Origin: Escherichia phage CSP1C
Sequence record: PQ202980
Reading direction: 5' to 3' (one strand)
DNA length: 55,550 nt
Made by a program: the position numbers and the translations under genes
Notes under the pieces: generated by a model
Seen by the model: only the letters and a program-made list of their open reading frames with translations
Told to the model about the DNA's origin: nothing
The model's database searches: none
In this document: positions 41,019-45,611 of the stretch, in pieces
Layout: every line of letters begins with the position of its first letter
Position numbering within the stretch: the first letter of the stretch is position 1

Positions 41019-41050
41019 CAATAAAGGGCCGAAAGGCCCTTTATTTATTT
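41018..41050. terminator. bidirectional rho-independent terminator
   Basis: AAGGGCC gaaa GGCCCTT stem with flanking T-tracts on both strands; convergent genes. Confidence 0.7.
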
Positions 41051-43381
41051 GCTTAAGTCTTTGAAAACACTCTCAATTGACTCGTCTATATACCATCCCA
41101 ACCCCCTGAAATTACGCTTCAATGCATCCTCACGCGTAACCGGAACAAGCGCGCCCATGTCTACAAGTTGTTTGATAGTGAGGTCTGTTGCAGTACCTGC
41201 TCCCATCCTGTGATTCTTGAATGCTGCTAACCCGTAGGTTCTGCGTGTGATAGTTGCCTTCGGAATAATACCGTCAACTCGCAGCTCCTTACGATCACAT
41301 GCAATTTTACCGCCAAGATAATCTTTGCAGACCTGACAGATAGCCTTCACACGCGTTTCATCATCACCGCCAATAGTACCTTTTTCCCATGCATTGATCA
41401 TGATGTCCTGTCCATGCGTAACAAAATCTACCGCCCATTGCATGTGATTGGGCTGAACGACAGGATTGATCCAGTTTTCCCCAACTGCTAACAGGGATGC
41501 AAGACGCAGAGCTTTAAGGTGCGCACGGTTCCACGGCTGACGGATAGCTTCGTCTTTAGTTGCGTTAATGTGTTCATCACACAGCAAGTTAAACTCCCGT
41601 TCAATCCTTTCCGCTTCAGGGCTTAACTGGACGGTAACGGTCTGGAACTTCGCCATTGTCACTAACGTGTGGTTAACAAGATGGCACACCATGTCCTTTA
41701 ATTGCTGTGGCATTGTGATTTCAGGATTTTCGTTTGCAGGAACACGATCCCCTTCATATTGCACAATGTGGAAACGGGACAAGAAACCGTCTTCCATCAT
41801 TTCACGTGTTAACGCTTCAAAGAATGTGTCCGGTGTTGTTTCGCCCAGTATGCTGAACGCCACCCCTTCCATTGTCTTGGTATTATTAGCCTTATCAGAA
41901 TACCCAATACCGCCAACAACATCCATCGCACCAGATTTTTGATACACATCTGTAATAGTTTGCTTCAGGGTATAGTTTGCAGTGCCAGGTTGAGCCGTTG
42001 CCATACCTTTAATGGTTTTACCAAACTCACCGTTAATATTCACAAACGAAGTATGATCCGCAAAACTTTTACGCAAGGCAGGACCGGAAGCATAGTTAGT
42101 CATGTCTACAAATTCATGCACTTGCGGTAATTGCTCGCCTACTTGCTTGCAGATATAGCTGGGCCCGGCGTGAAGCATTTCTTTGCCCACACCTGATCGG
42201 GCAATGAGCACAAAGTAACCGTTCAGCCCTGTGTTGGTGATAGTATTCCACACCTTGCCGCATACGCCTGACAAGAATGCTAACGATGCAGTGATTGCAA
42301 TTTCTTTCACCGGACGCTGCGATGCTTTGTAGATATACTTCGCAAGCTCACCAGCAAGTCCCGGCGGCCATTCAATAGCTGTTGCATCAATGGACGTGCT
42401 TTCTGCAACTACTATTTCACCGGACGGGCTGACTGTGGTTACAGGCATTTCCGTTACCTGCTGCATTGCACTGTGTGCGGCTTGCATACGAGCAGCGTAA
42501 TCCCGCGCCAGCGCCGCTACGTTTTCCTGGGCAATGCGCTCACGCTCCATGCGACCGCGGCACATACGCAAACAACGGTCAATATGAACATTGTTCTTAT
42601 TAGCCTTCTCACGTTTACCCAGTGCACTGTAACGGAACAGACGACGACATTGCTCATTACTTTCTGTGTAGAATGCATACATAGAGATAAGAGCAAGGTC
42701 TGCTTCAGACTGGGACGGGAATCCCATTTCAACCCATTCACCATTGAATAGGCGTGCATACTTATCGCCGTTGTCTGCTTCAAGCGCACGCTGGTGAATG
42801 GTTGCATCGTCTTCTACCGGATCTTTTTCTACCAGTTCAATTTCATATGTCTTGCGCTGAAGATCAATTTCATTCACAAGCATAGTAAGGTAATGATCAC
42901 GTTCGGCAACTGGTTTATTGTAGACAGGATTGCCCGTGCAGATAATAAAACGCTCCTGACTATAAACCTCGACACCATCACGTCGGCGACCTTTACCGAT
43001 CTTCCCTCTTAACCACAGGTGGACGCCCAAGCCTGAGCGACTTACTTCGGTGTAAGTATCGAACGCGGTCATGATCTGTTCGAAGCGGCGCAACTGTTCC
43101 GGCGTCGTGTGCTTCTTGGGATCAGGTTCATTGGTAGCGTTCTTCACATCCAGGTCGATGCAGGTGAACGGGTCTTGCGCAGTAAGCACGAAGCCAATAT
43201 AAGGTTTATTGAAATGAGCGGCGCAACCTTTGGCAGCTTCAAACGTCATAAGCATATCCGGATCGGTAACGTCCGCCGCCATCAAACGTCCAATATCGTT
43301 GTCCCATACAAGCGGCTTTTTATCCGCATCGGCGACCGCCCATTGGGGGAAAGCTTTAATTTCAGCGGGAAACAGTTCCAT
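41045..43381 (-). CDS. DNA primase (primase-polymerase-type N-terminal domain) with C-terminal P-loop NTPase domain
   Basis: 778 aa; size and position in replication module; putative P-loop around ARSGVGKE. Domain assignment by eye only. Confidence 0.55.
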   Translation of the reverse strand: MELFPAEIKAFPQWAVADADKKPLVWDNDIGRLMAADVTDPDMLMTFEAAKGCAAHFNKPYIGFVLTAQDPFTCIDLDVKNATNEPDPKKHTTPEQLRRFEQIMTAFDTYTEVSRSGLGVHLWLRGKIGKGRRRDGVEVYSQERFIICTGNPVYNKPVAERDHYLTMLVNEIDLQRKTYEIELVEKDPVEDDATIHQRALEADNGDKYARLFNGEWVEMGFPSQSEADLALISMYAFYTESNEQCRRLFRYSALGKREKANKNNVHIDRCLRMCRGRMERERIAQENVAALARDYAARMQAAHSAMQQVTEMPVTTVSPSGEIVVAESTSIDATAIEWPPGLAGELAKYIYKASQRPVKEIAITASLAFLSGVCGKVWNTITNTGLNGYFVLIARSGVGKEMLHAGPSYICKQVGEQLPQVHEFVDMTNYASGPALRKSFADHTSFVNINGEFGKTIKGMATAQPGTANYTLKQTITDVYQKSGAMDVVGGIGYSDKANNTKTMEGVAFSILGETTPDTFFEALTREMMEDGFLSRFHIVQYEGDRVPANENPEITMPQQLKDMVCHLVNHTLVTMAKFQTVTVQLSPEAERIEREFNLLCDEHINATKDEAIRQPWNRAHLKALRLASLLAVGENWINPVVQPNHMQWAVDFVTHGQDIMINAWEKGTIGGDDETRVKAICQVCKDYLGGKIACDRKELRVDGIIPKATITRRTYGLAAFKNHRMGAGTATDLTIKQLVDMGALVPVTREDALKRNFRGLGWYIDESIESVFKDLSK

Positions 43382-43387
43382 ATTTAA

Positions 43388-43591
43388 TTAAGACCTCCGA
43401 CGCTTATCGCCTTGCATCTTTTCCAGGACGGGTTCTGCTAATGAACGTTTATAGATGTACACGCTACCGATTTTAATAGCGCCGGGAATGCATTCGCGCA
43501 TTCTGGAGAGCTTAAATTTTGAAATACCGAACCGGTTTTCAATTTCGGTAGTTGTTATATAGTTGTGATTAAATTCTTCGACGTGGGTCAT
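43388..43591 (-). CDS. HTH DNA-binding protein (excisionase/AlpA-like HTH_17)
   Basis: ITTTEIENRFGISKFKLSRM...IKIGSVYIYKRSL matches the Xis/AlpA-type helix-turn-helix pattern; SD AAGGAGG. Confidence 0.55.
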   Translation of the reverse strand: MTHVEEFNHNYITTTEIENRFGISKFKLSRMRECIPGAIKIGSVYIYKRSLAEPVLEKMQGDKRRRS

Positions 43592-43652
43592 AGCTCCTCC
43601 TTTGTCCGCACACTATACACAGATAAGAGGAGCCATTGCAATGCGTTTTGCG

Positions 43653-44399
43653 TTACAGGATATGGGGGCAATAATATTTATCCATAACAAACTGAAAAAC
43701 TTCTTCAGGTGTGCGGTCATTACGAAGTTCAATCATATGATTGTCCAGCCATTGCAAACTCTCCTCAGCCTTATCTCTATTATTAAAGTGCAATAGCGCT
43801 GAAGGTGTATCGCCATGAGGTATAACTTCAAGTCTAAATACACCTGTTTCCAGATGAGTTATGTTGCAAGTCGGCCAAACGCCACGGTTTTCCCATATAG
43901 AAGGCGCATCCTCAAACCTGCATGAGCTATACCATTTATTGCGAAGAGATGTGATCTCCTTACTTGTTAACGGGGCACCCTTAACCCTTTCATGCTCCTC
44001 CAGCCAGGCTTTAAATTTTGGGTTAGGTTTGCGCCCGGGCTTCCCACCTTTCGCCTTTGCGCTTTCTTTAAACGCTTGCTCATACGGGTCTGATCCCTTG
44101 CCCATGTGGTAATTGAATTTGCCCGTATAGCTGCGAAGCTCTTTGGCATCCAGCTCACGCCCCAACTTATCGCTCACCCATGTAAGGAAAGCCTCCCGCT
44201 CTGCATCCAGCTTACCAGCTTTCGGTCTTACAGATTTTTTAACTGGCTGCTCCACATCCTCGTTGAAGTAATCTTCTACCATAGCAAGCGCCTGTGATTT
44301 GGTTGGTGCGCCACGCAACCGTGAGCACGCTTGCACAACCCAAGCCGCGAAGCACATATCTTTAACCACAGTGTTGGAGGTAATAATTTCTTCACTCAT
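43653..44399 (-). CDS. hypothetical protein
   Basis: About 248 aa from ATG 44399 with SD AGGTGGA. Confidence 0.45.
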   Translation of the reverse strand: MSEEIITSNTVVKDMCFAAWVVQACSRLRGAPTKSQALAMVEDYFNEDVEQPVKKSVRPKAGKLDAEREAFLTWVSDKLGRELDAKELRSYTGKFNYHMGKGSDPYEQAFKESAKAKGGKPGRKPNPKFKAWLEEHERVKGAPLTSKEITSLRNKWYSSCRFEDAPSIWENRGVWPTCNITHLETGVFRLEVIPHGDTPSALLHFNNRDKAEESLQWLDNHMIELRNDRTPEEVFQFVMDKYYCPHIL

Positions 44400-44441
44400 A
44401 ATCCACCTATACGCGTAGAAAGAAAGGTAATCATATAACAA

Positions 44442-45105
44442 AGTTTTTGTAATCGCAAAACCTTCGCAAAACTTTGTCTTTCCTGCATTATATTAAACGA
44501 TAGTGCTAGTGGCCAGCATAGTGGCATCACCTCTTATAGTGCGCCGTTACTGGCTTCGCTATAGTGTGCCACTATACGCTCACTATACACTAATAACTAA
44601 TTTTATTTTGTTTAGTGGTAATAAAGTTTTGGGTTTTTGGGGGGGACCCCTATATATCCCGGGAAAAACAAAGAAATAGTAGTAGTAGTGAAAAACATAG
44701 TGAAATGCCACTATCCTCACTATCACTACCAATTTAATGTAATTCATGGGGGTGTCTATGTACCAAAAACCTAAAACTTTCAGTCAACAGGCTAAAAACG
44801 GATAGAAACTAAAAGTTAATAAGTAATAACATAAATATATATAAAATAAGGATTTATTAGTAATGTATATAGTACCTATTGATATTATTTGAATGTTTTT
44901 GGGTCATTGTTAAAAAGTCCCAAAACTCGCAAAACCTGAACGGATGCAGATCAAAAATGAGAAATCAAGTGCTTTTGAGGGAAATTTATTGAACTATTGT
45001 GATCGGAAGGTATATCAAGCTATAATGCGCTTAATCGCGGGATATTGGAGGAGGACTTTATTGCGCGGTTAACCGGACCAGTAGGAGGGCTGGCCCGGAA
45101 GTAGT
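44442..45105. promoter_or_regulatory. AT-rich repeat-dense non-coding region (candidate operator cluster / origin)
   Basis: About 660 bp without credible ORF; at least 6 CACTATA/TATAGTG heptamers, 3 copies of TCGCAAAAC, (AGT)4, a G7 run and a TATAAT-like box. Confidence 0.5.
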
Positions 45106-45432
45106 TTAGAGTTGTACAGGTGTGAAGTGGGCTAGCGTATCGTCGGACATAATACCCGACAGTTTTTCGCTTATCCAGTCGGACCAAATGCTATCCGGTT
45201 CCTGGCGGTGCACAAACCAGATTTCGGATGTGCCTTCTTTGCGCATCGGTTGCACTTCTGCAAGGAACTTGTCCTGCATAAGGCGGGTGAAGCAGACGCT
45301 GGTCATTGGAACCGGCTTTTCGTCTTTATTGTAATAAGGGAATAATATTTTATTTCCGAAGTCGGCAACTTCATAAACCGTTCCTTTACGAAGGCCTCTG
45401 ATGTCAGTGTAAGAGCGAATGAACTTTTTCAT
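45106..45432 (-). CDS. hypothetical protein
   Basis: 108 aa ORF. Confidence 0.45.
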   Translation of the reverse strand: MKKFIRSYTDIRGLRKGTVYEVADFGNKILFPYYNKDEKPVPMTSVCFTRLMQDKFLAEVQPMRKEGTSEIWFVHRQEPDSIWSDWISEKLSGIMSDDTLAHFTPVQL

Positions 45433-45434
45433 AT

Positions 45435-45611
45435 TTATTTCCTTACGAACACAGAGCCGACGAATAATGTTGACTGAGTGGCAGCTTGCTCGATTAATTC
45501 GCCAACAAGCTGGGACTGGTTTAGAGGTTTGAGGCCTTCTTTGGCGCGTGCTTCATTTACACGACGTTGAAGGTCTTTTAAGTATTGAGTTGCGAAGCTA
45601 TCTAATTGCAT
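45435..45611 (-). CDS. hypothetical small protein (58 aa, below ORF-track cutoff)
   Basis: ATG 45611 with SD AAGGA; tightly packed with neighbours. Confidence 0.35.
   Translation of the reverse strand: MQLDSFATQYLKDLQRRVNEARAKEGLKPLNQSQLVGELIEQAATQSTLFVGSVFVRK

Follow-up and report, generated by a model that had tools for sequence, protein, structure and literature searches.

A predicted iteron-type origin and a candidate exchangeable specificity cassette upstream of the primase-helicase gene of Seuratvirus phages

Gene organisation of the locus

The window, by which we mean the whole 55,550-nt stretch of DNA from Escherichia phage CSP1C (PQ202980) that was analysed, matches the record of Cronobacter phage CSP1 (KY982929.1) at 100%, a Seuratvirus relative within the Queuovirinae. 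Compared with that record it has an extra A in an A-run at 44457 and an A instead of a G at 44646. Every gene between 41 and 47 kb is carried on the minus strand, and the order in the direction of transcription is a set of small ORFs, a non-coding region of approximately 705 nt (44400-45105), an ORF of 248 aa, an ORF of 67 aa encoding a helix-turn-helix (HTH) protein, and a primase-helicase gene that starts 6 nt past the HTH stop codon (Table 1). The coding sequence of CSP1_059 in KY982929.1 begins further upstream, at approximately 44468; the ATG at 44399, which is conserved among relatives and has the Shine-Dalgarno sequence AGGTGGA ahead of it, is the likelier start of the 248-aa gene.

This arrangement is widespread. 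Of 78 related metagenomic loci, with primase identities of 32-100%, 57 have an HTH homologue that ends less than 65 nt ahead of the primase gene, and many of these loci retain the order of repeats, an ORF of 235-273 aa, HTH gene and primase gene, with other repeat sequences. Scans of IMG/VR yielded only 4 and 1 loci. The same order is seen in the distant metagenomic relatives L084 (1173-1460), L102 (2082-2367), L077 (2076-2387) and L063 (8-280), where the repeats are GTTAAC (nine copies), GTTACG (eight), GTTAAT (eight) and GGCTAA (six), respectively. No sequence similarity was detected between the middle proteins of these four loci and the 248-aa protein of CSP1, with the exception of a basic patch that appears AT-hook-like by eye (KRGRGRPRN in L063 and KPGRKPNPKF in CSP1). 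In relatives, the short stretch between the HTH and primase genes is a hot spot for insertions (L021 3211-3735, L007 3177-3800, L020 3735-4259 and L006 3206-3749); HNH homing endonucleases occupy it in SA80RD, yong3 and ECP2304, and Skure-type phages have one or two small AP2-like ORFs there.

Table 1. Coordinates of features at the locus, numbered as in the window
Feature	Position	Strand	Basis or remark
Primase-helicase, 778 aa, NrS-1-like primase-polymerase helix-bundle domain and DUF3987	41045-43381	minus	
67-aa winged helix-turn-helix protein, CSP1_060, phrog_11967	43388-43591	minus	ORF and translation, AF2 model
Motif TGTATAGTGTG, containing the -10 hexamer TATAGT (43612-43617)	43609-43619	minus	
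Sigma-70-type promoter-like site TTGCAA-N18-TATAGT, for the HTH and primase genes	43612-43641	minus	Consensus scan
248-aa protein, CSP1_059, phrog_27223, no assigned function or fold	43653-44399	minus	Cassette member
Second repeat family, CGCAAAAC(C/T)T, tandem	44453-44474		
Promoter-like site TGGCCA-N17-TATAAT, for the 248-aa gene	44487-44515	minus	Consensus scan
Proximal repeat cluster: five TAGTG then three CACTA (+ strand, convergent)	44500-44592		Some copies 11 nt apart
Further copies of the second repeat family	44623-44640, 44763-44780, 44919-44937		
Distal repeat cluster: two TAGTG then three CACTA (+ strand, convergent)	44686-44728		
AT-rich stretch, GC 0.17-0.26, candidate unwinding element	44750-44900		Conserved among relatives of all repeat classes

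The 67-aa winged-helix protein

The HTH ORF begins at an ATG that is preceded by the Shine-Dalgarno sequence AAGGAGGAG at 43594-43602. In the AF2 model of its product (pLDDT 86) a helix at residues 3-10 and a strand at 11-13 are followed by helices at 14-21 and 25-30, a beta hairpin at 38-48 (strands 38-41 and 44-48) and a C-terminal helix. The model has the two-helix HTH and subsequent beta-hairpin wing of a winged-helix fold, with the recognition helix at approximately residues 24-34 (SKFKLSRMREC). The best Foldseek matches were to the RdfS excisionase, BldC, CbpM, Tn916 Xis, the N-terminal domains of MerR-family proteins and RacA. These matches are weak yet consistent, the top four (RdfS, BldC, CbpM and Tn916 Xis) having E values of 0.09-0.3 and TM scores of 0.5-0.6. 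When searched against Pfam the window protein reached no family threshold, the only hit being to AbiEi_4 at an E value of 0.048, under the cut-off, and by sequence it fell short of the curated threshold for HTH_17 (PF12728). Among 22 homologues, 5 matched HTH_17 (best E value 6e-6) and 4 matched MerR. Taken together, these results justify the HTH label for the 67-aa protein.

The C-terminal tail of the protein, (M/L)QGDKRRRS (residues 59-67, encoded at 43388-43414), occurs exclusively in phages with the 248-aa gene and is replaced in those that lack it. It is possible that this tail forms a contact between the HTH and the 248-aa protein.

The motif upstream of the HTH gene

The first-pass annotation had noted the heptamer CACTATA about 25 nt upstream of the HTH start codon and had proposed that the protein recognises such sites and thereby regulates its own gene. 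The distance is fairly given, as 17 nt lie between TGTATAGTGTG and the ATG and the centre of the motif is at approximately -23. One copy of the heptamer ahead of the HTH gene is not significant by itself, however, since its chance of occurring within 61 nt is approximately 0.7%. Read on the strand of the gene, the motif supplies the -10 hexamer of a sigma-70-type promoter-like site (Table 1), in which the -35 hexamer TTGCAA (43636-43641) stands at a spacing of 18 nt from TATAGT, nine of the 12 hexamer positions match the consensus, and the ATG is located 20 nt downstream of the -10. This site has hexamers near TTGACA and TATAAT, a spacing within 16-18 nt and the same orientation as the gene, as is typical of sigma-70-type promoters; its weak points are the imperfect -35 and a short predicted leader of approximately 13 nt.

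Comparison with relatives bears on the nature of this site. Among 15 aligned relatives, the T, the A and the final T of the -10 are invariant, the -35 is either TTGCAA or TTGTGG, and both the -35 and GTATAGTG are held at a constant distance from AGGAGG-ATG. GTATAGTG is present at the equivalent position in 12 of the 15, across phages with TAGTG, TAGGG, GGAATAAT and CCCTATAAAC repeats (the repeat classes are described below). CSP1 and Seurat are 94% identical across the HTH promoter, an island inside the variable cassette described below, while the products of the flanking genes are 47% and 58% identical. Seurat and CAjan, which lack a TAGTG array, are nevertheless identical to CSP1 over 50 nt at this position. 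TATAGTG is also retained in yong3 and in Skure-type phages with GGAATAAT repeats. In contrast, SLUR75, phiG7 and L014 have TATTGT at the position of the motif despite possessing TAGTG arrays and the recognition helix of CSP1.

An operator should follow the protein that reads it, whereas TATAGTG is found alongside four recognition-helix classes; because the upstream site stays constant while the HTH changes, it does not match the behaviour of an operator. We consider it most likely, from these alignments, that TGTATAGTGTG is the -10 box of the HTH promoter. Evidence against the proposed autoregulation through the upstream copy comes from the retention of TATAGTG across repeat classes and from its loss in the three phages just mentioned, and this part of the earlier claim reduces for the most part to an ordinary promoter element. 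The motif would resemble the repeats because the repeat of this class of phages (TATAGTG) happens to resemble a good -10 hexamer. The -10 copy of CSP1 is identical to a repeat over 10 nt (TATAGTGTGC, as at 44558-44567) and matches the repeat copy at 44577-44596 in 17 of 20 nt, so a protein that binds the repeats could also occupy the HTH promoter in the class of phages to which CSP1 belongs.

Clustered repeats in the intergenic region

The same heptamer had been described as iterated between 44.4 and 45.1 kb. Four copies of CACTATA do lie within 44535-44587, but the real unit is shorter and the repeats are restricted to 44.50-44.73 kb. Over the 55.5 kb of the window CACTATA occurs six times against 6.16 expected, which is the level of chance, although five of the six copies fall within 43611-44587 (the four in the array and one at 43611). 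Shorter words give a clearer picture of the clustering. CACTAT has nine copies in 44500-44723, where simulated sequences never contained more than four per 250 nt, and CACTA has 14 copies in the 228 nt at 44501-44728 against 0.61 expected (Poisson P 6e-15, within the intergenic region of approximately 705 nt).

The repeats are arranged as two clusters, each with copies in convergent orientation (Table 1), and this layout is identical in phages with TAGTG and TAGGG repeats. The distal cluster is exactly bracketed by an 18-nt inverted repeat (44623-44640 and 44763-44780), the arms of which are 94% complementary and 122 nt apart. The array coincides with the minimum of the cumulative GC skew of the window (44-46 kb) and directly precedes the replication genes, but the skew minimum is weak evidence for an origin because GC skew in phages largely follows gene orientation. 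Features expected of an iteron origin are present, namely at least three clustered short repeats in non-coding DNA and an adjacent AT-rich element; covariation with a linked replication protein is seen at the level of a cassette comprising the 248-aa protein and the HTH. We infer that the repeats at 44500-44728 are probably the iterons of a predicted replication origin, which would also act as the control region of the replication operon. In the literature searched we found no transcription start, binding or replication data for a Seuratvirus, nor any papers on Seuratvirus origins, promoters or these proteins.

A role in control is suggested by the overlap of the proximal cluster with the promoter-like site of the 248-aa gene, where the repeats concerned are those at 44500-44512 and 44518-44523. 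The annotations of SA126VB and SA80RD place a promoter at the corresponding position, and the -10 of the 248-aa gene promoter in SLUR75 and L022 is itself a repeat copy. The intergenic region as a whole contains several promoter-like sites and a terminator-like hairpin. CACTATA was also considered as a phage-polymerase promoter of the T7/SP6 type and rejected, as the copies occur in both orientations at spacings of 6-25 nt and share nothing beyond 5-7 nt. A search of 43300-45500 against Rfam for structured RNA gave no match at E values up to 1.

Repeat classes and a hypervariable cassette

The Seuratviruses of E. coli possess three classes of repeat, which are found at the same places and in the same layout. 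TAGTG(GC) repeats are present in CSP1, SA80RD, SA126VB, SLUR75, KS_A8, phiG7, L014, L022, L036, L038 and L043. TAGGG(T/G)A repeats are found in Seurat, CAjan, slur01, L023/L024, L032, L037, L039 and L040, and GGAATAAT repeats in Skure, KS_W4, GottfriedDienst, VogelGryff, ECP2304, STP-SP5, L012, L029 and L035. Sliding identity in the pairs CSP1/Seurat, CSP1/KS_W4 and L022/L023 is 94-100% in the flanks and 30-60% within a cassette that extends from just past the landmark GTTGACTGAAAG (approximately 44790 in the window) to the 3' end of the HTH gene (approximately 43420); the right-hand boundary is the same in all three pairs. This pattern suggests a single exchangeable specificity cassette comprising the iterons, the 248-aa gene and the two-thirds of the HTH gene that encode its DNA-binding part. 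Such a cassette would account for the abrupt mosaic hot spot at this point in genomes that are nearly identical elsewhere.

Candidate readers of the iterons

The primase-helicase is not the reader of the TAGTG-type repeats. KS_W4 and GottfriedDienst encode primases 100% identical to that of CSP1, yet have GGAATAAT repeats, and the primases of SLUR75 and Seurat are 99-100% identical while their repeats are TAGTG and TAGGG, respectively. Iteron class (TAGTG, TAGGG or GGAATAAT) thus does not follow the helicase allele in the manner of SaPI Rep or P4 alpha, and since identical primase-helicases are found with different iterons, a separate protein of the cassette must supply the specificity. The small AP2-like ORFs of Skure-type phages were rejected as readers of GGAATAAT, as they are 26-98% identical or absent among phages with the same repeats and as L026 has this ORF with other repeats.

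Two proteins of the cassette come into question, and in all comparisons between them the covariation of gene and repeat is confounded by physical linkage (adjacency). Recognition-helix classes of the HTH mostly track the repeats (ISKFK with TAGTG, VSRYK with TAGGG, LSRRK with GGAATAAT and TLTR with CCCTATAAAC). In relatives without the 248-aa gene the HTH is the only consistent protein of the cassette, small ORFs downstream of it being variable, and these phages have a copy of GGAATAAT right at the -35 of the HTH promoter. It is plausible, therefore, that the HTH reads the repeats, and to this extent the earlier suggestion that the protein recognises CACTATA sites stands at the level of the cassette; what tells against it is the occurrence of the same recognition helix with different repeat cores.

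For example, the HTH of L023/L024 is of the ISKFK type (75% identity to the CSP1 protein), yet the repeats of these phages are TAGGG, and their 251-aa protein groups with that of Seurat (57% identity, versus 44-50% to others). L023 and L022 share a recognition helix and differ in the repeat core; by a hand count, 17 of the 67 residues differ between their HTH proteins, most of them in the DNA-binding half, and nucleotide identity across the gene is 64-86%, so that this pair is a weaker case of the same HTH with different repeats. L084 and L102 likewise share a recognition helix (HTH proteins 73% identical), but L084 has GTTAACG repeats and L102 has GTTACGC, and the identity between their middle proteins is 46%. 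In both pairs the middle protein tracks the repeats better than the HTH does. Seurat and L032 have identical HTH proteins and a shifted repeat consensus. Phages with TAGTG repeats are cleanly separated from those with TAGGG by one segment of the 248-aa protein (residues 53-104, with a 4-aa indel), whereas only six scattered columns of the 67 in the HTH alignment do so, one of them (position 31) in the recognition region and with residues mixed on both sides. A search for an HTH-specific motif common to ISKFK-type phages and absent from Seurat-type phages gave nothing convincing. The 248-aa protein itself has no fold or family match and no recognisable DNA-binding fold.

On these comparisons the 248-aa protein appears somewhat more likely than the HTH to be the iteron reader, and the two may act jointly. 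Taken singly, the assignment to the 248-aa protein is evenly balanced between right and wrong, and that to the HTH is somewhat doubtful.

A second repeat family associated with the primase allele

A further repeat is found around the iterons (Table 1). The core CAAAAC has five copies in 44400-45105 against 0.42 expected, and Seurat-type backbones have TATAAAC at the homologous places instead of CAAAAC(C/T)T. The repeat follows the primase allele in 28 of 28 phages, whatever their iteron class: allele 1 is accompanied by CAAAAC and allele 2 by TATAAAC. Shared lineage may confound this association, since cassette subtypes nest inside the alleles. Between the alleles, identity is 99% in the first 260 residues and drops to 30-60% in the last 120 aa, the most divergent part. 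By analogy with P4 alpha and SaPI Rep, which dock on sites of their own, the primase-helicase may dock on the CAAAAC(C/T)T sites.

A two-part origin code can be proposed on this basis, in which the cassette (the 248-aa protein, the HTH or both) would read TAGTG, TAGGG or GGAATAAT and the C-terminal region of the primase would read CAAAAC or TATAAAC. The pairs would recombine semi-independently and define replication-specificity groups among phages that are nearly identical in other respects, and the HTH would form the link between the origin-bound protein and the helicase. We put this forward tentatively and, taken as a whole, regard it as rather unlikely. If true, it would bear on the replication compatibility of co-infecting relatives and on the engineering of these phages.

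Comparison with known systems

In lambdoid phages the initiator gene and the iterons are exchanged as one unit, which gives rise to replication specificity classes; in lambda itself the O gene contains the iterons, and its product brings in host DnaB by way of P. The iterons and candidate reader genes of CSP1 relatives are similarly inherited as an exchangeable unit. In contrast to lambda, however, CSP1 has intergenic iterons and a primase-helicase gene of its own, and its candidate readers are not related to O. The CSP1 repeats lie in the position usual for phage and satellite origins, those of P4 and lambda among them, directly ahead of the primase-helicase operon, and the anatomy of the region resembles that of the P4 and lambda origins. 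P4 alpha, from the satellite phage P4, is a primase-helicase with a C-terminal DNA-binding domain that reads the ori and crr repeats. Compared by description only, the CSP1 primase is similar in that its allele covaries with CAAAAC or TATAAAC and its last 120 aa are the most divergent; it differs in that another, independent family of repeats in CSP1 is linked to two additional proteins, and in that binding by the CSP1 primase is a prediction.

The fold class of Xis, BldC and RdfS is known for binding repeat arrays, and several proteins of the excisionase/MerR type bind direct repeats cooperatively. The CSP1 HTH matches this group (lambda and Tn916 Xis, RdfS, BldC, HTH_17 and P4-like AlpA) in size and in the order of its fold elements, but it has no integrase or recombination context and its partner gene always encodes a primase-helicase.

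ORF56 of pRN1 is a ribbon-helix-helix (CopG-like) protein. In the pRN1 study (PMC4234260), a small sequence-specific DNA-binding protein is encoded upstream of, and co-transcribed with, the primase-polymerase/helicase gene orf904 and represses the promoter of the operon. The HTH gene of CSP1 is also located directly ahead of the primase-helicase gene. The pRN1 system is archaeal, its small protein has a different fold from the winged helix of CSP1, and the pRN1 study describes no hypervariable iteron cassette. In SaPI and SCCmec elements, short repeats by the primase/helicase genes form an element-specific origin that is matched to the element's own protein (PMC7581432). CSP1 resembles these elements (SaPI Rep, SCCmec Cch2) in having short repeats that adjoin primase/helicase genes. 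In SaPI Rep and SCCmec Cch2 the C-terminal domain of the helicase reads the iterons, whereas the CSP1 helicase is not the iteron reader, and the repeats are downstream of the genes in SaPI and SCCmec and upstream in CSP1. Compared with all of these systems, the iteron specificity of CSP1 appears to be split from the helicase and placed in an exchangeable two-protein cassette.

Proposed mechanism and alternative explanations

We consider it moderately probable that the motif ahead of the HTH gene is the -10 of an ordinary promoter, that the repeats are an iteron-type origin and operator, and that specificity resides in the exchangeable cassette. A host-type promoter, TTGCAA-N18-TATAGT, would transcribe the HTH and primase-helicase genes, and one or more proteins encoded by the cassette would bind the iterons. 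This binding would mark the origin, would repress the operon of the 248-aa, HTH and primase genes, and would help to recruit the primase-helicase, which may dock via its divergent C-terminal region on CAAAAC(C/T)T. If the HTH is the binder, its autoregulation would operate via the 44.5-kb repeats instead of the -10 copy. This reading offers a location and an anatomy for a putative Seuratvirus origin, in a group of phages that is present in collections such as BASEL, and assigns candidate roles to two conserved hypothetical proteins.

A model built on the original proposal, in which the HTH binds both the CACTATA array and its own -10 copy and so represses itself and the primase gene, is unlikely. 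The retention of TATAGTG in phages with TAGGG, GGAATAAT and CCCTATAAAC repeats, together with TATTGT in SLUR75, phiG7 and L014 (all three with TAGTG repeats and an ISKFK helix), is hard to reconcile with an operator at the -10, even though in CSP1 this copy matches the repeats over 10 nt and in 17 of 20 nt. As regards the array, the HTH is inside the cassette that changes with the repeat class, its helix classes mostly match the repeats, and it shares a fold class with the array-binding proteins Xis, BldC and RdfS; in phages that lack the 248-aa gene it is the sole consistent cassette protein, with GGAATAAT at the -35 of its promoter. Set against this are the same or similar HTH proteins found with different repeats (L023/L024, L084/L102, Seurat/L032) and the separation of TAGTG from TAGGG phages by just 6 of 67 HTH columns, one of them in the recognition region.

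It is also conceivable that the repeats serve transcriptional control alone, for example as temporal-switch operators, and that replication starts elsewhere or is initiated by recombination. This would fit the position of the repeats over the promoter-like site of the 248-aa gene, the repeat that forms the -10 in SLUR75 and L022, and the several promoter-like sites and terminator-like hairpin of the intergenic region. We nevertheless think it quite improbable, as the two convergent clusters, the neighbouring stretch of 17% GC, the bracketing inverted repeats and the phased A-tracts are characteristic of origins and as the site is directly ahead of the primase-helicase operon, in the usual position of phage and satellite origins; transcriptional control would also hardly explain why, in 28 of 28 phages, the second repeat family covaries with the portion of the primase gene that contains the helicase. 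That the repeats and the upstream copy are functionless products of chance or of the composition of AT-rich intergenic DNA is extremely improbable. The heptamer count over the whole window is at the level of chance, but the clustering is far above expectation and the layout is conserved, and the concerted replacement of the repeats at all positions across phages refutes this explanation.

A putative antisense transcription unit in the intergenic region

A promoter-like sequence, TTGTGA-N18-TATAAT, is present on the + strand at 44997-45026, antisense to all neighbouring genes. It is followed by a hairpin, CCGGACCAG...CTGGCCCGG (45073-45098), which has no match in Rfam. This unit could yield a short antisense or priming RNA. 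The + strand promoter and hairpin are conserved even in yong3 and STP-SP5.
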